From assembly GCA_016182015.1 (NCBI GenBank), contig JACOYC010000007.1, forward strand, positions 1-6,070: a DNA stretch of 6,070 nt, written 5' to 3'. The notes below the pieces were generated by a model that saw only the letters and a list, made by a program, of their open reading frames with translations, was not told the origin of the DNA and did no database searches. Shown here in pieces: positions 1 to 6,070 of the stretch. Both the position numbers and the translations under genes were made by a program. Positions within the stretch are counted from its first letter, which is position 1. The number at the start of each line of letters is the position of its first letter. The DNA comes from Nanobdellati archaeon. GTDB lineage: Archaea > Nanobdellota > Nanobdellia > UBA10117.

Positions 1-91
1 CCGCCAAACGCGCTGCTCCAAGAGCATTTCGTCCAAGCTCATCAAACCATTAAAGGTGCTGGACAGGCATACAGACTGCTCGAAAAATGCC

Positions 92-215
92 TTTATAAAT
101 GTTTCGAAGGAACATTTATTTGCAAATGAGTTAAAACGAAATTTGTATTATAAAGATTTCGCTGGAATCTTTATTTGCAAACGACAAGCTTGTATCATAA
201 GTTTTCGCTAAGGCT
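92..215. repeat. Imperfect tandem repeat, about 2.5 copies of a ~55-bp AT-rich unit
   Basis: Exact 12-mer TTTATTTGCAAA at 115-126 and 170-181 (period 55). TTATAAA at 93-99 and 148-154, with a degenerate TCATAA at 195-200. TTTCG at 102-106, 157-161 and 203-207. TTGTAT at 143-148 and 190-195. The repeat lies immediately downstream of the stop (221-223) of the 505-aa gene. Confidence 0.6.
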
Positions 216-220
216 GAAGG

Positions 221-1738
221 CTATGCCACTACTAAAGTTGGTTCTGGCTGGACTGCCAAGCCTTCTTTTGGGCTGTTGTCTGCGGTGCCTGGCCGGGCCA
301 AAAACATCGCATCAATAACACTATCAGTAACTTTGTCTGTGACGCTTGCGTTCCCGTGCCGCATCAAATACTCGCTGGCCAGCCGCTGTATGCAAGCCCG
401 CAGCGAGCCATCCCTGCCAAGGGGCTGGATTTTTTGCTGAAAACTTTTGAAGTAATTAGCAATAAGCCCTTCCTGCGTTGAAACACCTGCCAGCCGCTGG
501 GCAACTTGGACAAGCTTGCTAGCCGGCAGCGCGCTAAATCGCTCCGTGAAAAGCGAGTGGTCGATCTCTTCCAATGTCCTTTCCGTACGAGTATAATCGC
601 TAAAATCACTAATATATTCGTAAACTTCGGCGCGGCGATTTGTGTAATCAATTATTCTGCGATTTCTAAATAGTGTATACGTATCGCGCAACGAATTCTG
701 ATCAGATTCCCTATTATTAGCGTTGATGATAGTATTAAAGTCAAAGTAATTACTATCCGCGCTATCGTGAATGTCACTAACGCCAGAATTAGAAATATAA
801 TATATATTATCCATACCTTCTGAAAAGAGGCTGTTCCTTTTTTTCTTTCGCTGGCCTGCCTCTGCTCTCTCTTTGTCATAAATTTCATTAGTTGTTTTTT
901 CAAATAATATTTTCGCACTGGGTTTGTTTTTTTGTTTCAGTTCTAGTGTGCGGGAATAAATAACATCAAGTGCAATGCACCTTAGGGCATCTTCTTTTGG
1001 GACTAAAATGCGCTGACCCTGCACATCATGCGCGATGCATTTCTCAGCGTCAAAGTTTTGTGTTCTTGAAGCATAACTTCCGGGACAGACATAATAAAAT
1101 CGTTTTATATCAACGCCGGAATCGCTGGCTGTCATCTTCAGCCACAATCCAATTGTTGAGCCGGGTTTATTGAAATGAGCGATGTTAAAAATAATGCTTT
1201 TCCCGTCGTACTGCACAGTCAGGTCGCTGACATTTTTCTCAGACGAACGTGCTATAACCTGGTCAGTTTTCAGGATGTCCAGCGGATTCTGCGCCCGAAT
1301 ATTATTAACTAATAAAATTGTATCTTCCAGATCAAGCTCTGCTTGTTGCCCACTAGACCCTTGCTCATAGGGCTTGTCTTCCAGACAATATTTTTTCTTT
1401 CCATCGGACAGGCCAACACTACCATGGACATCACCAAGCAGGAAAACTGCATCAAACGGCAGGTTAAATTTATTTTTCAGAAATTTTGCGAACAAAAATC
1501 TGTATAGCGCCTTTGTGCCGCAAAATACCTCGCCGAGCTGTTCAACTTCGTGCGGCCATGGAAATAATATACAATTGCCAAACGCGCGCGTGCGGCCCCA
1601 CTCATACTTGAAACCTTCTGTAACTGTTATAACTGCGCTGGCAATGTCTTCGAGAGATTTTCCGGATAAATCAATGCCCTTGGCTTTCTGTTCAAATAAT
1701 TCTAAAGTTTGCTGTGGAACGCTGTCTGGCCATACCAT
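221..1738 (-). CDS. Hypothetical protein, 505 aa, no family recognised
   Basis: The track ORF is 221..1741 (506 aa), but it starts at a GTG. The first ATG is the next codon (1738-1736) and shares its A with the TGA of the upstream ORF (sense GTGATG), which implies translational coupling. The N-terminal ~125 aa show a PD-(D/E)xK-like pattern. Residues ~300-385 are N/D/S/Y/R-rich low complexity. The C-terminal ~120 aa look helical. Confidence 0.8.
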   Translation of the reverse strand: MVWPDSVPQQTLELFEQKAKGIDLSGKSLEDIASAVITVTEGFKYEWGRTRAFGNCILFPWPHEVEQLGEVFCGTKALYRFLFAKFLKNKFNLPFDAVFLLGDVHGSVGLSDGKKKYCLEDKPYEQGSSGQQAELDLEDTILLVNNIRAQNPLDILKTDQVIARSSEKNVSDLTVQYDGKSIIFNIAHFNKPGSTIGLWLKMTASDSGVDIKRFYYVCPGSYASRTQNFDAEKCIAHDVQGQRILVPKEDALRCIALDVIYSRTLELKQKNKPSAKILFEKTTNEIYDKERAEAGQRKKKRNSLFSEGMDNIYYISNSGVSDIHDSADSNYFDFNTIINANNRESDQNSLRDTYTLFRNRRIIDYTNRRAEVYEYISDFSDYTRTERTLEEIDHSLFTERFSALPASKLVQVAQRLAGVSTQEGLIANYFKSFQQKIQPLGRDGSLRACIQRLASEYLMRHGNASVTDKVTDSVIDAMFLARPGTADNSPKEGLAVQPEPTLVVA

Positions 1739-2061
1739 CACTCAAATCTTGGCGCACCGCCGTAATTAGAGTCAATGCGTGGCGGATCGCCTGGCGCGCG
1801 CTGGACTGTTTTTAAATCTTTCAAATTTATACCGTAATAAGCCACTAAGGTATGTTCAACAACACCAGTATCAACGCTTGGCACTAATTCGCGCTGGAAA
1901 AACTGTTTTGTTTTTGTACTAAGGTCTGCAACCGTAGCAAGTTCTAGTTGCTTTAATCTGCCTAAAACTCTTGAGCGCACGTCCGGGTGGACGTCCACCA
2001 TTCTGTTAACAAACGTTTCTATGGAATCTGATCTTTTTCCGGGTTTACCTTGGCTAAACAT
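1738..2061 (-). CDS. Hypothetical small protein, 107 aa, first gene of a two-gene operon
   Basis: ATG at 2061-2059. GGTGAT (sense; + coordinates 2067-2072) lies 5 nt upstream and matches the Shine-Dalgarno core. The stop TGA (1740-1738) overlaps the start of the 505-aa ORF. No recognisable motif. Confidence 0.6.
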   Translation of the reverse strand: MFSQGKPGKRSDSIETFVNRMVDVHPDVRSRVLGRLKQLELATVADLSTKTKQFFQRELVPSVDTGVVEHTLVAYYGINLKDLKTVQRAPGDPPRIDSNYGGAPRFE

Positions 2062-2093
2062 ATTATATCACCAAATTATTCTGGCCAAAAGGC

Positions 2094-2114
2094 TTTTTAA
2101 ATCTTTCTATATTG
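2094..2114 (-). promoter_or_regulatory. Candidate TATA elements for the 107/505-aa operon
   Basis: Sense TTTAAAAA (2094-2101) lies 33-40 nt upstream of the ATG. Sense CAATATAGAAAG (2103-2114) lies 42-53 nt upstream. The proximal box would place the TSS inside the SD-like GGTGAT, so which box is used is unresolved. Confidence 0.35.
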
Positions 2115-2158
2115 GTTAATGTCCCTGTAGGCTTAAATTAAGTACAAATATATTAATT

Positions 2159-2175
2159 CTAATATGAAATATTAG
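2159..2175 (-). terminator. AT-rich hairpin just 3' of tRNA-Asp (possible 3' processing or termination element)
   Basis: CTAATAT-GAA-ATATTAG forms a perfect 7-bp inverted repeat abutting the tRNA-Asp discriminator base (2177). Confidence 0.3.
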
Positions 2176-2176
2176 G

Positions 2177-2461
2177 CGCCTGAGCCGAGATTCGAACTCG
2201 GGTCTGAACCGTTCTGCATGACAACCAAAGTACTTCAGCCGATCGCAGATCGGCTTGCCTTTTCTTTGGGTTGCCGACAAAATCCATTTTGGATTTTGCG
2301 GACACATCTGAACTTTGTTCAGATTGTGCCACGACACCTTTCTTTTTACGACGCAAGAAAAATCCGAAGATTTTTCTGCGCCCAGAAAATGCTTTGCATT
2401 TTCTTGGGAAAGAAAGGGGTTGTGTGACAGGGTTCTATCCTAACCGCTAGACTACTCAGGC
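2177..2461 (-). tRNA. tRNA-Asp (anticodon GUC), intron-containing
   Basis: Exons 2461-2425 and 2211-2177 join to 72 nt: GCCUGAG-UA-GUCU-AGCGGUUA-GGAU-A-GAACC-CUGUCAC-GGUUC-AGAC-CCGAG-UUCGAAU-CUCGG-CUCAGGC-G. Acceptor stem 7/7, T stem 5/5, anticodon stem 5/5; the D stem has two G.U pairs. The 3' trailer is CCU, so CCA is not fully encoded. Confidence 0.9.
2212..2424 (-). other. tRNA-Asp intron, 213 nt, canonical position 37/38
   Basis: C32UGU35 pairs with the intron 3' GCAG. The 3' bulge is AA|C38 and the 5' bulge is C36A37|C. An ACAACC/GGUUGU helix closes the intron, with an extra CAU opposite the 5' bulge, so the BHB is relaxed. The interior is filled with 6-13 bp hairpins and holds no plausible ORF. 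Confidence 0.8.
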
Positions 2462-2484
2462 ATAGCTTTTCGTTTTGTGTGCGC

Positions 2485-2492
2485 TTTTTAAA
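2485..2492 (-). promoter_or_regulatory. TATA box of tRNA-Asp
   Basis: Sense TTTAAAAA lies 24-31 nt upstream of tRNA position 1 (2461). CTAT immediately precedes +1, as it does for tRNA-Tyr. Confidence 0.6.
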
Positions 2493-2512
2493 GTTGAGTC
2501 CCGCCCTCAGGA

Positions 2513-2663
2513 TTTTCTTTATCATCCTTTTTCCTTAGCGCCATCGTAGATGGCGCACGGGGGAATCAGGGTGAGCGTCCCAATCGAACGAAGTTCGATG
2601 TGCGGCAAAATCCATTGGATTTTGATTGCAACCTGAAGGGGGCAGAGCCCCCTTCGGGTCCGT
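2513..2663 (-). other. tRNA-Tyr intron 2, ~151 nt, inside the T-loop (about 59/60)
   Basis: The T arm is split: UCAGG-UUCAAA ends at 2664 and U-CCUGA-GGGCGGG-A resumes at 2512. A-runs on both sides make the boundary ambiguous by up to ~4 nt. The interior has the hairpins GAAGGGGGC-TCT-GCCCCCTTC, CAAAATCC-AAT-GGATTTTG, ATCGAAC-TTC-GTTCGAT and GCGCCAT-CTACG-ATGGCGC. I could not draw a clean BHB by eye. Confidence 0.65.
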
Positions 2664-2685
2664 TTTGAACCTGAAACCTTCCGGG

Positions 2686-2723
2686 TTCTGAGCGCATATT
2701 GCTTGCCTAGCGGCAAGTGCTGT
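2686..2723 (-). other. tRNA-Tyr intron 1, 38 nt, at or near 37/38
   Basis: Sense sequence is ACAGCACTTGCCGCTAGGCAAGCAATATGCGCTCAGAA, with an internal hairpin CTTGCC-GCTA-GGCAAG. The 3' end UCAG pairs with C32UG (U35.U mismatch), followed by the bulge AA|C38. The boundary is ambiguous by +/-1 nt. Confidence 0.7.
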
Positions 2724-2783
2724 CTACAGCCAGACGCTCTACCAGGTTGAGCTAGGGCGGGATAGATAGTGCTGCATATTTGG

Positions 2784-2792
2784 TTTAAAAAA
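2784..2792 (-). promoter_or_regulatory. TATA box of tRNA-Tyr, doubling as a T-run after the upstream CDS
   Basis: Sense TTTTTTAAA lies 23-31 nt upstream of tRNA position 1 (2761). It is also 15 nt downstream of the TAA (2809-2807) of the surface-protein gene. Confidence 0.6.
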
Positions 2793-2806
2793 GTTCTGTG
2801 CGCATA

Positions 2807-4213
2807 TTATTCCTTCGTAGAAATCTTTCCAAGCACAGAAACAGTGTTGGATGCAACTGCCTTTGCCTTGCCGTTCTCTGTCTTGAATTTTACGTGCGCG
2901 GCAGGCAACCTAATCGCCCCAACAATACCAAGAGAGGTTCTCAAATCATAAGTCAAAACCCTTTCCTCGCCAGGATATAAAACATCAAACTTCCAGCTTA
3001 GCCTGATGTGCCCGCCTTCCTTCTTTATCACGCTCGGGTTCATTGTACCATAATCGCTGCCCGGTTTTAGCGGCGTGGCAATCACATCTGTAACAGTAAC
3101 GTTCGGCACCTGCTTGCCCGCCAGTGATTTTACAACAAGCTTAACCTTCAGGCTCTTTGGCCCTTTTATTACTGATTTCGTAATGCTAAACTCGGCGCCG
3201 TAATATTTTGATAATGTATAAACGCCGGCGATGAGTAATATTAAAACAACGGCCAGCCATGCGTAAGATATTGTGTAAGCCATGGTTGTGCTCTGGCCGG
3301 GAGAAAGCGAATACTGCCAGCCAGCCACAAATCCGCCGCTGTCACCGCTTAATTTCTCTGCTTCGGGTTTCGAAAAAAAGAACGCGCGCTGCCAAGACGG
3401 AAGCAAAACTGTATGTGTGCCAACCGCATCGATATTGCCTTTGTTTGTCAGCGTGATTGTATATTTTGTGCCGAGGAATGCTCCGGAAGTATCTGTTTTG
3501 GAAACCACATTTTCGGAAGACAAAACCTGAAACCGCTTGCTCTGCTGAGAAACAAGTTTGCCGGCCGAATAAATCGAAACCACATTCTTGTAGTTGCCTG
3601 GCTTTACGTCAGAGTCTATTGTTATGTCTTTCTGCAGAACCAGTTTGGCCTCGCCGGAGGCCAGCTTGCCAATTGTAAAGTCAACCGGCTGGAACAAATC
3701 GCTGCTCAACTTGCCTGTCAGGCCTGCCGCTTCATCCTTGCCGGAATTTTTAACGATCAGATTTATTTTGTAATCGCCAGGCTTTATCTTACTCTCCAAA
3801 TCTATTGAAGAATCAATATGCGGCGGTTCTGTGAGGACAGTTATCTTAACCAGCACCGATGTCTGCACTTTTGGGTTATTGCAGGCCTTTGCAGTCACTT
3901 CAATCGCGTAGGTGCCGGCATAAACATCTGCCGGCGGCGTGATTCTAAGTTCGGCAGATCTTGCGGAATTTGCAGGTATATCTAAAATATAATTATCAAA
4001 GTAGGCTGTCCCCCAGCCTGGCGCCGAAAGGCAGAATCTGTCGAACTTTGCCTGATTATTACCGACTGTAATGCCGTATTTTGCAGAATCTGTGTAAGAA
4101 ACAGCACCGACCACTGCATTTTGCGTCATAACAACATCAGAACCTGCATGCGCGATGGGCAAACCGAGAACAAGTAACAAAAGACTAATGATGATTATGT
4201 GTGGCCAGCGCAT
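2807..4213 (-). CDS. Secreted, membrane-anchored protein with CARDB/Ig-like beta-rich repeats
   Basis: The track ORF 2807..4222 starts at a TTG; the first ATG is at 4213-4211 (MRWPHIIIISLLLLVLGLPIAHA|GS), which reads as a classical signal peptide. Segments such as RITPPADVYAGTYAIEVTAKA, INLIVKNSGKDEAAGLTGKL and YTITLTNKGNIDAVG resemble CARDB/NEW3-type Ig-fold repeats. One TM helix lies at track residues ~316-337 (YTISYAWLAVVLILLIAGVYTL), followed by a K-rich segment and a ~125-aa C-terminal beta-rich domain. Confidence 0.85.
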   Translation of the reverse strand: MRWPHIIIISLLLLVLGLPIAHAGSDVVMTQNAVVGAVSYTDSAKYGITVGNNQAKFDRFCLSAPGWGTAYFDNYILDIPANSARSAELRITPPADVYAGTYAIEVTAKACNNPKVQTSVLVKITVLTEPPHIDSSIDLESKIKPGDYKINLIVKNSGKDEAAGLTGKLSSDLFQPVDFTIGKLASGEAKLVLQKDITIDSDVKPGNYKNVVSIYSAGKLVSQQSKRFQVLSSENVVSKTDTSGAFLGTKYTITLTNKGNIDAVGTHTVLLPSWQRAFFFSKPEAEKLSGDSGGFVAGWQYSLSPGQSTTMAYTISYAWLAVVLILLIAGVYTLSKYYGAEFSITKSVIKGPKSLKVKLVVKSLAGKQVPNVTVTDVIATPLKPGSDYGTMNPSVIKKEGGHIRLSWKFDVLYPGEERVLTYDLRTSLGIVGAIRLPAAHVKFKTENGKAKAVASNTVSVLGKISTKE

Positions 4214-4242
4214 GTTTATCAATTATGTTAGTGAATAATTAG

Positions 4243-4250
4243 TATATAAA
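4243..4250 (-). promoter_or_regulatory. TATA box of the surface-protein gene
   Basis: Sense TTTATATA lies 30-37 nt upstream of ATG 4213. This predicts a near-leaderless transcript starting around 4220. That argues against the TTG at 4222 as the start codon. Confidence 0.5.
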
Positions 4251-4307
4251 TGTTTCTAGATCGCATAATGAGCAATCCACAATGATATATGGTGAGGCTG
4301 CGCAGAT

Positions 4308-4464
4308 TTGTTCCGCACATCGGGATTTGCGGGATTGTTAAATCCCGCTGTTTTTCTTTTTGGGTTCCCAGGAGCCTTTTTCTTTCCAGAGCCGAATGAA
4401 ATTCGGCTTGGCCAAGAAAAATGCCGAAGCATTTTTCTCTGGTTTTAAAAGAAAAAGGGTGCTG
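4308..4464 (-). other. tRNA-Pro intron 2, ~157 nt, inside the T-loop (56-60)
   Basis: CGCAG-UUCAA ends at 4465 and AU-CUGCG-CAGCCUC-A-CCA resumes at 4307. Read without splicing, the local T-loop would be AACAAAU, which lacks U54 and U55. The exact boundary is ambiguous by ~2 nt. It contains the three-way-junction module at 4375-4458. Confidence 0.65.
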
Positions 4465-4484
4465 TTGAACTGCGGTCACACCCA

Positions 4485-4583
4485 TTCTGGTAAAGACATC
4501 TTTTGTGCGATTGAAAATCGCACTTTTCTTTCTTTAGACGCCCAGGAGCGTTTCTTTCTTTTTAAAAGAAAGAAAAGCTGCTG
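4485..4583 (-). other. tRNA-Pro intron 1, 99 nt, at or near 37/38
   Basis: The sense strand starts CAGCAGC and ends CCAGAA. CCAG pairs with U33GG35 (A32.G mismatch), followed by the bulge AA|U38. It contains CTTTTCTTTCTTT...AAAGAAAGAAAAG (+ 4523-4577) and the hairpin GTGCGATT-GAA-AATCGCAC (+ 4505-4523). The boundary is ambiguous by +/-1 nt. Confidence 0.65.
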
Positions 4584-4638
4584 CCCCATGGGCGTAGCCT
4601 ACCAAGCTAGCCGACAGCCCCGCTAAGAATTTATTTAT

Positions 4639-4663
4639 AGCTTTAAAAGTTCTTTTACTATTT
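4639..4663. repeat. 25-bp exact direct repeat, copy A (tRNA-Pro promoter region)
   Basis: AGCTTTAAAAGTTCTTTTACTATTT is identical to 4751-4775. Confidence 0.9.
4641..4648 (-). promoter_or_regulatory. Candidate TATA box of tRNA-Pro
   Basis: Sense TTTTAAAG lies 20-27 nt upstream of G1 (4621), slightly closer than for the other two tRNAs. It sits inside the 25-bp repeat that duplicates the adk 3' end. Confidence 0.4.
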
Positions 4664-4720
4664 GTACAGCCCCCTTTCTTTGGGAAAGAAAGGTGCTCTA
4701 CGAAACCACCAAAGAAACCT

Positions 4721-4739
4721 GTGCGATATTCTATCGCAC
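4721..4739 (-). terminator. Hairpin 8 nt downstream of the adk stop (terminator-like, or a cassette of the intron hairpin family)
   Basis: GTGCGATA-TTC-TATCGCAC has a perfect 8-bp stem. In the adk sense it is followed by AGGTTTCTTTGG. The same stem occurs in tRNA-Pro intron 1 (4505-4523). Confidence 0.4.
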
Positions 4740-4746
4740 TAAATTT

Positions 4747-5457
4747 TTACAGCTTTAAAAGTTCTTTTACTATTTTTTCAGCATCTGCTTTTACGCTACT
4801 AACGTCTTTTTCCGCATTGACTGGTCTAAACGCGGCGGAATATGTTCTGCGCATGCTTTCCACCATTGGCCATGTCTTCTTATCATACTCACGTATCGCA
4901 TTCGCAAACATGTCGTAATTAACATCTTCCTGCCTGATGTAAAGCCCGCCCCCGCAGGCATCACATCTGTCCGCAGTTTTTGGCGGAGAAAACTTAACAT
5001 GATAGACTAAACCGCATGGCCTGCAGCTCCTTCTTCCCTTGGCCCGCTCAAACAATGTATCGTCATTCGCAATGTCAAGGTAAAGCACTGCATCAAAATC
5101 AATCTCCCATTTCATATGTCCGTTCACGCGCTCGAACATCCTTTCGAGAAAATCCAGCTGTCCAGTAGTCCTTGGGTAGCCAACCCAAAAAGCAACCGAG
5201 CCCGGCTTCATTGCAAAAAATTGATGCTCGACAAGGGAATTCATGTACGGATCCGGAGTAAGGCTTCTGTCTGCATCAAAATGCTCTGCGACTTTTCCAA
5301 GCAAAGTCCCGTCGCGCTTGCCTGCCCGCAGCAAATTTCCGGTTGCGATATGCTGCGAGTCCGGTATTTGTTTGAGTAAGTGCTGCAGAACAGTGTCTTT
5401 GCCCGAGTAAACAGCGCCAATTATAACCACATTCTTAACTGGTTTAAGTTCAGCCAC
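4747..5457 (-). CDS. adk: Adenylate kinase, long form with a four-Cys zinc LID
   Basis: Motifs: GAVYSGKDT (P-loop; compare GxPGxGKGT), HIATGNLLRA (compare IStGdlLRa), GYPRTTGQ (compare GfPRTxxQ), LID GRRSCRPCGLVYHVKFSPPKTADRCDACGGGLYIRQEDV (CxxC...CxxC), and IREYDKKTWPMV. The start is GTG at 5457; the next in-frame Met is residue 72, after the P-loop. GAGGT (+ 5463-5467) lies 5 nt upstream. Confidence 0.9.
   Translation of the reverse strand: MAELKPVKNVVIIGAVYSGKDTVLQHLLKQIPDSQHIATGNLLRAGKRDGTLLGKVAEHFDADRSLTPDPYMNSLVEHQFFAMKPGSVAFWVGYPRTTGQLDFLERMFERVNGHMKWEIDFDAVLYLDIANDDTLFERAKGRRSCRPCGLVYHVKFSPPKTADRCDACGGGLYIRQEDVNYDMFANAIREYDKKTWPMVESMRRTYSAAFRPVNAEKDVSSVKADAEKIVKELLKL
4751..4775. repeat. 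25-bp exact direct repeat, copy B (last codons of adk)
   Basis: AGCTTTAAAAGTTCTTTTACTATTT is identical to 4639-4663. Here it encodes the adk C-terminus (...KIVKELLKL). Confidence 0.9.
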
Positions 5458-5489
5458 AGCTTACCTCTAAAAGCAGATAAAACAGTGAC

Positions 5490-5499
5490 TATAAAAAAA
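5490..5499 (-). promoter_or_regulatory. Candidate TATA box / T-run between the kinase gene and adk
   Basis: Sense TTTTTTTATA lies 33-42 nt upstream of the adk GTG and 14 nt downstream of the TAG (5515-5513) of the upstream gene. Confidence 0.45.
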
Positions 5500-5512
5500 T
5501 ATCTGTGCAAAA

Positions 5513-6070
5513 CTAAACGAATTTCCCAACTAAAACATCAATCTTGGAATAAAGCTGCATAAGCGAGCCAGATGCATCAATCACATAATCTGCCTGCGCG
5601 AAAACCCTTTTCAGATGAAACTCTTTTTCCTCCCTTTTTTCTAGAGCGAGGAACTCTGGCCAGTAGGCTGGATCTCCCGGCCGGCCGCGCTTCTTCATCC
5701 GCTCAAAACGAATTTTTGCGGGCGCAGTCACAAATACTAGTTTTGCCTTGTGCTTAAAATATTTTTTAACAACTTTTACATCGGATGCCAAGCGTATGCC
5801 ATCAATGCAAACCTTTTCGTCGCCATCATTCTCTACTTTCTGAATTATCTTTCTTATAAAATAATTTGTCCCGTACTTATTTCTCAGCCGCTCGGAAAGT
5901 TTTTCCAGATTCTTGCGGTTGGAGCGTATGCGCCTTTTTCTTGCCTCAGAGCGGATGTAGTCAGAAACTGTGTGCTTGTGAAATTTATATTTTTTTTCCA
6001 AATATTCGGCAACAGTCCCCTTGCCAGCCCCGATATCTCCAACTAAACCTATGACTGTGCGGATGGCCAT
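5513..6070 (-). CDS. P-loop nucleotide/nucleoside-kinase-like protein (dephospho-CoA-kinase / archaeal UPF0200-like)
   Basis: 185 aa. The ATG falls exactly at the window edge (6070-6068). A Walker A motif, GLVGDIGAGKGTVAEYL, sits at residues 8-24. VCIDGIRLASDV resembles the xIDGvRsxxEv segment of small archaeal NMP-kinase-fold proteins. The P-loop lying so close to the N-terminus supports this ATG as the true start. The specific substrate is not assignable by eye. Confidence 0.8.
   Translation of the reverse strand: MAIRTVIGLVGDIGAGKGTVAEYLEKKYKFHKHTVSDYIRSEARKRRIRSNRKNLEKLSERLRNKYGTNYFIRKIIQKVENDGDEKVCIDGIRLASDVKVVKKYFKHKAKLVFVTAPAKIRFERMKKRGRPGDPAYWPEFLALEKREEKEFHLKRVFAQADYVIDASGSLMQLYSKIDVLVGKFV

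Follow-up and report, generated by a model that had tools for sequence, protein, structure and literature searches.

Introns of archaeal transfer RNA (tRNA) genes are short, with lengths of 11–129 nucleotides (nt) and medians of 12–25 nt in one account (PMC4090602) and below 100 nt in another (PMC4033280). Here we describe a tRNA-Asp(GUC) gene split by an intron of 213 nt, which lies in a 6,070-nt stretch of DNA from a Nanobdellati archaeon (GenBank assembly GCA_016182015.1, contig JACOYC010000007.1, positions 1 to 6,070); this whole stretch is called the window below. The intron resembles other archaeal introns of the bulge-helix-bulge (BHB) type in its 37/38 position, in the helix of 4 base pairs (bp) that nt 32–35 form with the 3′ end of the intron, and in the 3-nt bulge at the 3′ site; like them, it has neither an open reading frame (ORF) nor a ribozyme core. 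It differs in that its 5′ site lies in an internal loop or multiloop instead of a 3-nt bulge, and in its interior, which is a mosaic of hairpins. Its length, and that of the T-loop introns in the neighbouring tRNA-Tyr and tRNA-Pro genes (151 and 157 nt), exceeds the 11–129 nt range (PMC4090602); an earlier note on this DNA had rightly remarked that the tRNA-Asp intron is about three times as long as the mature tRNA and beyond the usual archaeal size. We consider it likely that this tRNA-Asp(GUC) gene is functional, that its endonuclease-spliced intron has grown through hairpin modules which are mobile or accrete, and that introns in this clade pass from one tRNA gene to another.

tRNA-Trp introns that carry a box C/D guide occur in Haloferax and other Euryarchaeota, and their excised form is a folded, circularised RNA. 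They are likewise long and sit at the canonical site, but the window intron has no C/D boxes, no Rfam match and no conservation across relatives. The transposing introns of the Thermoproteales (Sugahara 2008 and Fujishima 2010, as related in PMC4033280) are similar in other respects. Several introns per gene and non-canonical sites are found there too (in the window's clade these sites are the D-loop, 29/30, 53/54 and the T-loop), and, as here, similar introns occur in different tRNA species, implying transfer, with rapid gain and loss. In contrast to them, the window's clade belongs to the DPANN archaea, its introns are several-fold longer and built of hairpin modules, and its turnover is visible at ~10% divergence; the tRNA-Asp intron of the window has no detected copy, whereas tRNA-Pro intron 1 has one in the tRNA-Asp gene of a related locus, L055 (89% over 82 nt).

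Disrupted tRNA genes with a broad-specificity splicing endonuclease, EndA, are known from ARMAN/Micrarchaeota and Nanoarchaeota (PMC3239211, PMC5829648, PMC12397907). These are likewise DPANN lineages with relaxed splice sites and multiple introns, and their tRNA sets are likewise left incomplete by standard tools, but introns as long as that of the window are not reported in these papers. At the DNA level, the repetitive extragenic palindromic elements REP and REPIN (PMC3116915) offer another parallel, as short hairpin units that form families, are concentrated in scarce non-coding DNA and differ between relatives. The hairpin units of the window differ from them in that no REP-associated tyrosine transposase (RAYT) or other transposase is seen, in that their sequences vary while stem and loop sizes are kept, and in that they are confined, in the DNA sampled, to tRNA genes and their flanks. 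We found no description of DPANN tRNA introns that are hairpin mosaics or exceed 200 nt in the searchable literature, whose coverage is incomplete, so that an earlier description is possible.

With long introns allowed, ARAGORN places a tRNA-Asp(gtc) with a 213-nt intron at c[2175,2461], in agreement with the earlier note's reading of a 72-nt cloverleaf interrupted by an intron of this size. The gene consists of the following features, the first three from this ARAGORN run and the last one read from the sequence:

2425..2461, reverse strand: tRNA-Asp(GUC) exon 1, tRNA positions 1–37, 37 nt, GCCUGAGUAGUCUAGCGGUUAGGAUAGAACCCUGUCA
2212..2424, reverse strand: tRNA-Asp intron, 213 nt, site 37/38
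2177..2211, reverse strand: tRNA-Asp exon 2, tRNA positions 38–73, 35 nt, CGGUUCAGACCCGAGUUCGAAUCUCGGCUCAGGCG
2485..2493, reverse strand: TATA-like box CTTTAAAAA, 24–32 nt upstream of the tRNA-Asp 5′ end

The joined exons form a 72-nt tRNA that folds as a cloverleaf under that constraint, with G10, U33, the GUC anticodon, A37, C38, a UUCGAAU T-loop and G73; G10, GUC, C38 and G73 can be read as Asp identity elements. The CCA end is incompletely encoded, with CC (2176–2175) directly 3′ of exon 2. The TATA-like box suggests that the gene has its own archaeal promoter, and a TATA box lies ~25 nt upstream of each tRNA gene in the window (2784–2793 for tRNA-Tyr, 4640–4649 for tRNA-Pro). These boxes, the archaeal matches to the exon pattern and an identical adenylate kinase labelled 'DPANN group archaeon' at NCBI all point to an archaeal host. 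An assembly artefact was ruled out by the Logan assembly L004 of an independent run (SRR12113430), which is 100% identical over window positions 152–2587 and includes the entire tRNA-Asp gene. A perfect 7-bp hairpin (CTAATAT GAA ATATTAG, 2159–2175) stands directly 3′ of the CC end; it may act as a signal for processing or termination, or represent a further module.

Neither default ARAGORN nor Rfam cmscan (E ≤ 1) reports a tRNA gene in the window, and the sole Rfam match, IRES_Cx43, is a chance hit (18.7 bits against a threshold of 70 bits). Other kinds of long intron were considered and rejected. The only ORFs overlapping the intron (65–73 amino acids, aa) cross the exon borders and have no Pfam match (E ≤ 0.1), which rules out a homing-endonuclease intron. 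A box C/D guide intron was likewise ruled out, as positions 2212–2424 contain no C box (RTGATGA) even with one mismatch allowed, and no Rfam family at E ≤ 1; the absence of both an ORF and a guide from the intron, which had been claimed before, thus stands. Group I introns have a conserved P3–P8 catalytic core, are usually longer than 200 nt and are detectable with Rfam. This class was also ruled out, because there is no Rfam match and the fold is a string of simple hairpins.

No long homologue of the 213-nt intron was found in the genome and metagenome scans or among the collected introns, the only matches being of module length (13–14 nt). A scan of GTDB genomes with the exon pattern returned 46 loci; nearly all are DPANN, and all come from DPANN or other archaeal metagenome-assembled genomes except for one labelled Chakrabartia. 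In ~39 of them tRNA-Asp is intron-less. In metagenome contigs the exact 31-nt exon-1 pattern had no match, while the junction pattern gave one locus (L051); a search of genome contigs for related loci with the adenylate kinase found no relative. Introns at 37/38 of tRNA-Asp are 78 nt long in L030 and 141 nt in L035, both among the 46 loci, and 86 nt in L051, those of L030 and L051 having a common start, CACAACC, and strict BHB ends, and T-loop introns are present instead in L017 (51 nt) and L039 (211 nt). The tRNA-Asp gene of L039 (Woesearchaeota ERP119294_co1_40) has no anticodon-loop intron, and its 211-nt T-loop intron is made of 7–9-bp hairpins (GAAAAUCCAAAGGAUUUUC, GCAAAAUCGAAGAUUUUGC), which extends long hairpin-mosaic introns to a second DPANN lineage. 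In the 60 tRNAs that ARAGORN detects in 351 kilobases (kb) of DPANN loci, the introns of the anticodon loop are 12–141 nt long.

Three syntenic loci of close relatives were compared with the window: L053, and L055 and L052, which belong to one genome. The flanking DNA of L053 is 88–92% identical to the window, and its tRNA-Asp gene is interrupted by three short introns, at 29/30 (26 nt), at 37/38 (11 nt, AAUCCGCAGAA) and at 53/54 (21 nt). Without them it is identical to the mature sequence of the window at 67 of 72 positions, and all five differences keep or improve pairing, through two compensatory acceptor pairs and a change from U13·G22 to C-G. Purifying selection on the exons for the cloverleaf formed after splicing indicates that the gene is functional and that its intron must be removed. 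The genome of L055 and L052, with protein identities of 75–84% to the window, has a 103-nt intron at 37/38 of tRNA-Asp, which is unrelated to the 213-nt intron of the window, together with a 102-nt T-loop intron. Since the same site holds 11 nt in L053, an unrelated 103 nt in L055 and nothing in ~39 of the 46 loci, the 213-nt intron is, on this comparison, fast-evolving filler and not a conserved RNA; its length and content are, by the same measure, lineage-specific and very young relative to the flanking genes.

The neighbouring tRNA genes, which the earlier note had overlooked, show the same phenomenon. They were found by deleting every possible second segment and then running ARAGORN, and they are listed here with a hairpin-containing insert in a nearby spacer:

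2499..2761, reverse strand: tRNA-Tyr(GUA), exons 2761–2724, 2685–2664 and 2512–2499
2723–2686, reverse strand: tRNA-Tyr intron 1, 38 nt, site 37/38
2663–2513, reverse strand: tRNA-Tyr intron 2, 151 nt, T-loop ~59/60, register ambiguous by ~3 nt
4290..4621, reverse strand: tRNA-Pro(GGG), CCA encoded, exons 4621–4584, 4484–4465 and 4307–4290
4583–4485, reverse strand: tRNA-Pro intron 1, 99 nt, site 37/38
4464–4308, reverse strand: tRNA-Pro intron 2, 157 nt, T-loop ~58/59
4671..4745, reverse strand: 75-nt hairpin insert with two perfect hairpins, modules GUGCGAUAGAAUAUCGCAC and CCUUUCUUUCCCAAAGAAAGG of the intron families

Only 37 nt separate tRNA-Tyr, at its 3′ end, from the beginning of tRNA-Asp, and the introns of tRNA-Tyr and tRNA-Pro are built from hairpin families that are also present in the tRNA-Asp intron. 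The number, position and length of introns in these two genes also differ between relatives. In L053 the tRNA-Tyr introns are ~41 nt each, so that the T-loop intron is ~41 nt against 151 nt in the window; in L055 tRNA-Tyr has a ~153-nt D-loop intron and 40 nt at 37/38, with no T-loop intron; and in L052 the tRNA-Pro introns are 14 and ~41 nt, against 99 and 157 nt at the same positions of the window. The introns appear to be mobile, because intron 1 of the window tRNA-Pro matches the 37/38 intron of the L055 tRNA-Asp (89% identity along 82 nt; E = 7e-19), whereas the tRNA-Pro of the L055 genome itself, in L052, holds just 14 nt at this site. The 3′ ends of this shared intron differ, each matching the anticodon loop of its host. 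The labels that ARAGORN gave to L052, Phe(gaa), and to the tRNA-Asp of L055 and L035, Ser(aga), were dropped, as they result from a different placement of the intron; Pro(GGG) and Asp(GUC) were kept from the exon sequence (CCCUGUCA / UUGGGG), orthology and the position of the 3′ bulge, with L052 formally ambiguous.

The tRNA-Asp intron has a predicted minimum free energy of −87.6 kcal/mol, compared with −49.6 ± 4.5 kcal/mol for 200 shuffles (z = −8.46), and it contains five perfect hairpins, so that the earlier description of an intron that is almost wholly hairpins agrees with the predicted fold:

2381–2408, 2352–2380, 2302–2329, 2277–2299 and 2237–2255, reverse strand: five perfect hairpins in the tRNA-Asp intron

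A long-range helix, CCUUUCUUU/AAAGAAAGG, encloses the first two of these (2381–2408 and 2352–2380). The opposite strand folds just as well (−88.1 kcal/mol, z = −8.61), and comparing the two strands, as a test between hairpins of RNA and of DNA level, thus gave no difference in folding energy; the fold consists of near-perfect Watson–Crick palindromes with no strand signal. By eye, a 5-nt direct repeat, CAACC, is found at intron nt 3–7 and again before CAAAG, flanking a block of ~141 nt. Without this block and one CAACC, the intron would be 67 nt long and closed by a 10-bp helix (ACAACCCAAAG/CUUUGGUUGU), near in size to the 78–86-nt introns of L030 and L051. The repeat may be an insertion footprint, for which a 5-mer is weak evidence.

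Perfect hairpins, defined as a stem of at least 7 bp with a loop of 3–4 nt, were counted across the 6,070 nt of the window. The five introns and the 75-nt insert make up 12% of the window, and they hold 17 of its 19 distinct perfect hairpins, where shuffles of the window yield ~1. Stem length across the collected introns peaks at 8–9 bp. The hairpins form families whose members differ by paired changes, such as GUGCGAU(U-UUC-A / A-GAA-U / U-UCC-A / C-UGC-G)AUCGCAC and AGCCGA..UCGGCU, with 2–4 related hairpins per family in 16 kb of clade DNA. Five hairpin families, looked for across 357 kb of DPANN loci, turned up only in this clade, in its tRNA introns and the spacers next to its tRNA genes, and also in L035 and L039. 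A 29-nt hairpin in the spacer between tRNA-Tyr and tRNA-Asp of L053 is 93% identical to one in intron 2 of the window tRNA-Pro. That spacer (254 nt, 1660–1912) is full of nested helices, and may be plain spacer or another heavily fragmented RNA gene. Logan contigs end at window positions 2587 (L004), 4393 (L003) and 4688 (L001/L002), all inside perfect hairpins; independent short-read assemblies from this one organism that break in this way indicate that the modules fragment assemblies of the lineage, as repeats or palindromes do. A loose scan for nested strict BHB motifs inside the introns returned dozens of matches, driven by low-complexity U-rich and A-rich arms, and was uninformative.

Where homologous introns can be aligned, pairing is kept while the sequence changes. 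In the hairpin of the tRNA-Tyr 37/38 intron, three of six pairs have changed on both sides between the window and L055 on the one hand and L053 on the other, and 100% are still paired, against 11–44% in slid controls. The outer helix of the intron shared by tRNA-Pro and tRNA-Asp reads CAG/CUG in one of the two genomes but UGG/CCA in the second, and otherwise the copies differ in loops and linkers. By these comparisons, what is maintained is the property of being hairpins and not a specific RNA.

At the splice junction, folds computed with the cloverleaf imposed pair the GCAG of the intron 3′ end (GCAGAA, 2212..2217, reverse strand) with C32–U35, giving the 4-bp helix, and place the 3′ splice site in a 3-nt bulge, AA|C38. 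The earlier note had described the junction as BHB-like, and these two elements stand. Its 5′ bulge (CA|C) does not: the proposed closing helix ACAACC/GGUUGU can form, but then CAU faces CAC in a 3x3 internal loop at the 5′ site, and this conformer is 3.8 kcal/mol less stable (−113.5 against −117.3 kcal/mol) than an alternative in which GGUUG pairs with the internal CAACCCAAAG and the 5′ site (A37|C) lies at a multiloop. The junction is not a strict hBHBh′ motif (two 3-nt bulges on opposite strands, 4 bp apart, with flanking helices), and fits only the BHL/hBH class of relaxed motifs, with one bulge-helix and the second site 4 bp away in a loop. With its 5′ site in either a 3x3 internal loop or a multiloop of the modelled folds, the junction is of the relaxed bulge-helix-loop kind, a point that had been missed before. 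The three canonical (37/38) introns of the window all end in NCAGAA|N, matching U33–G34 of their own anticodon loops. The 11-nt intron of L053 has the same GCAGAA|C ending as the window intron, and relaxed geometry is forced on it (CUGUCA|AAUCCGCAGAA|C); since it cannot form the outer helix, the enzyme of this clade must already handle loop-type 5′ sites. Broad-specificity archaeal endonucleases do cleave bulge-helix-loop sites, as ARMAN-2 EndA does (PMC12397907), and an association of DPANN EndA variants with more disrupted tRNA genes has been described (PMC5829648).

Taking these observations together, we propose that the tRNA-Asp gene is probably transcribed from its own TATA promoter, and that the pre-tRNA would form the cloverleaf with its anticodon stem extended by the C32–U35/GCAG helix. 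EndA would then cut AA|C38 in the 3-nt bulge and A37|C four bp away in the loop, and a ligase of the RtcB type would join the exons and probably circularise the intron. A short resident intron would have been inflated or replaced through accretion of hairpin modules of 8–9 bp with loops of 3–4 nt, and whole introns would move between tRNA genes in the clade. The modules may arise or move at the RNA level, by reverse splicing, or at the DNA level, through palindromic repeats or template switching. A long intron could be tolerated because each module folds locally and leaves the cloverleaf and the splice helix free, which would explain why pairing is maintained rather than sequence; local folding that spares the tRNA body and the splice helix is thus the apparent constraint on the intron sequence. 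A more far-reaching version, which we put forward only tentatively, is that of an active mobile tRNA-intron system, which would spread via the host endonuclease and ligase, by reverse splicing and copying back into DNA, and grow by 8–9-bp modules. Such mobility and growth would account for genomes ~10% diverged that carry almost entirely different intron sets.

Several points weigh against the proposal of a functional gene with a module-inflated intron. The EndA and RtcB steps, the circularisation and the exact cut sites are taken from the established archaeal pathway; the genes for EndA and RtcB are not within the 6-kb window, and no transposase or other mobilising gene is seen near the locus. 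As the whole 213-nt intron has no homologue, its accretion is deduced from the sharing of modules and from length differences. The transcribed strand carries three cUUCGg and three GNRA tetraloops, a weak sign that the hairpins are important as RNA, and maintained pairing together with the three cUUCGg tetraloops would also fit an RNA-level hairpin role.

In its strongest form such a role would make the excised intron, linear or circular, a functional structured RNA, which might for instance serve as a stable circular scaffold, act as a sponge for proteins or have a regulatory task. Archaeal BHB introns are circularised, and the very strong fold (z = −8.46), the helices of homologous introns kept through compensatory changes and the tetraloops on the transcribed strand would all fit. 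The earlier note had suggested that the excised intron is itself a folded RNA; a role of its own for this RNA is not supported. Relatives whose flanks are ~90% identical either lack the sequence at this site or have another in its place (11 nt in L053, an unrelated 103 nt in L055), most sampled DPANN tRNA-Asp genes have no intron, and neither the genome and metagenome scans nor the collected introns contain a long homologue; there is no Rfam match, the opposite strand folds equally (z = −8.61), and the same hairpin types fill the other four introns and the spacer of the window. We therefore regard this explanation as improbable. Somewhat less remote, though still unlikely in our view, is that the hairpins are selfish palindromes at the DNA level, similar to REP/REPIN or to miniature inverted-repeat transposable elements, which accumulate at harmless sites, tRNA introns and spacers being the sole safe ones in a compact genome and the RNA structure incidental. 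The perfection of the hairpins and their equal folding energy on both strands are what such elements would show; related hairpins are found outside introns, in the 75-nt insert with its 37-bp duplication and in the L053 spacer between tRNA-Tyr and tRNA-Asp; and one could add the Logan contig ends inside hairpins at 2587, 4393 and 4688, as well as the CAACC repeat that may flank the ~141-nt block of the tRNA-Asp intron, a weak indication noted by eye. Yet no transposase or RAYT-like gene is seen, and the hairpins have a common geometry but different sequences, so they are not copies of one element. Every family member found lies in or beside a tRNA gene, and what tRNA-Pro and tRNA-Asp have in common at 37/38 is a whole intron with an adapted 3′ end and not a single hairpin, which points to boundaries defined in RNA.

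A last alternative, in which the tRNA-Asp gene is a pseudogene destroyed by an insertion, with a working copy elsewhere, seems to us very improbable. It could explain why default tRNA finders make no call and why the 5′ splice site is not a strict bulge, but no damage is seen in the exons, whose differences from L053 are compensatory. The insertion is placed precisely at 37/38, comes with a proper helix and a 3′ bulge, and ends in GCAGAA|C as that of L053 does; the gene also has a promoter-like box. The two tRNA genes beside it are split likewise, and orthologues in relatives also bear introns.

Some features of the surrounding DNA may be recorded here. The 75-nt insert is flanked by 37-nt direct repeats (4634–4670 and 4746–4782, 92% identical), which duplicate the 3′ end of the adenylate kinase ORF and the tRNA-Pro TATA box; in L052, unlike the window, tRNA-Pro directly follows the kinase stop codon, and the arrangement at 4634–4782 looks like an insertion or duplication event. 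The tRNA cluster is adjoined by a conserved pair of genes of 107 and 505 aa (221–2061, reverse strand), with no Pfam match and no assigned function; in a relative (P0047 contig) the same pair is immediately upstream of the rpoH-rpoB-rpoA operon. Two similar copies of ~19 nt, ACATTTATTTGCAAATGAG and ATCTTTATTTGCAAACGAC, are found between window positions 100 and 200, in the spacer downstream of the 505-aa gene. In L055 (1746–3025), tRNA-Asp and tRNA-Tyr are on the strand opposite the 471-aa gene, with which they share a strand in the window; ~600 nt with a called 58-aa ORF lie in between, and a remnant resembling the tRNA-Tyr 3′ exon (GAGTCCCGCCCTCAG) is found at ~2115–2130. These features appear to indicate a local rearrangement around the L055 tRNA cluster.

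Default ARAGORN and the tRNA model of Rfam miss all three tRNA genes of the window, and long or multiple introns may explain part of the incomplete tRNA sets of DPANN genomes (PMC5829648). The question of how archaea gain tRNA introns is an old one. Here, introns vary in number, position, length and identity between genomes whose flanks are 88–92% identical, and one of them occupies different tRNA genes in two relatives, which makes gain, loss and transfer directly testable. If real, the mobile-intron system would for the first time allow the gain of archaeal tRNA introns to be followed between genomes that are nearly identical, and its introns would be two to ten times as long as usual. Introns of 150–213 nt, those of the T-loop included, are also demanding natural substrates for DPANN splicing endonucleases. 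As pairing is maintained and sequence is not, our results suggest that a long intron is tolerated only if it is folded away into local hairpins. The differences from known archaeal introns are the length, the hairpin-mosaic architecture and the very high rate of turnover. What the locus reveals, rather than a new functional RNA in a single intron, is an intron system of striking dynamics and a gap in the annotation of DPANN tRNA genes.

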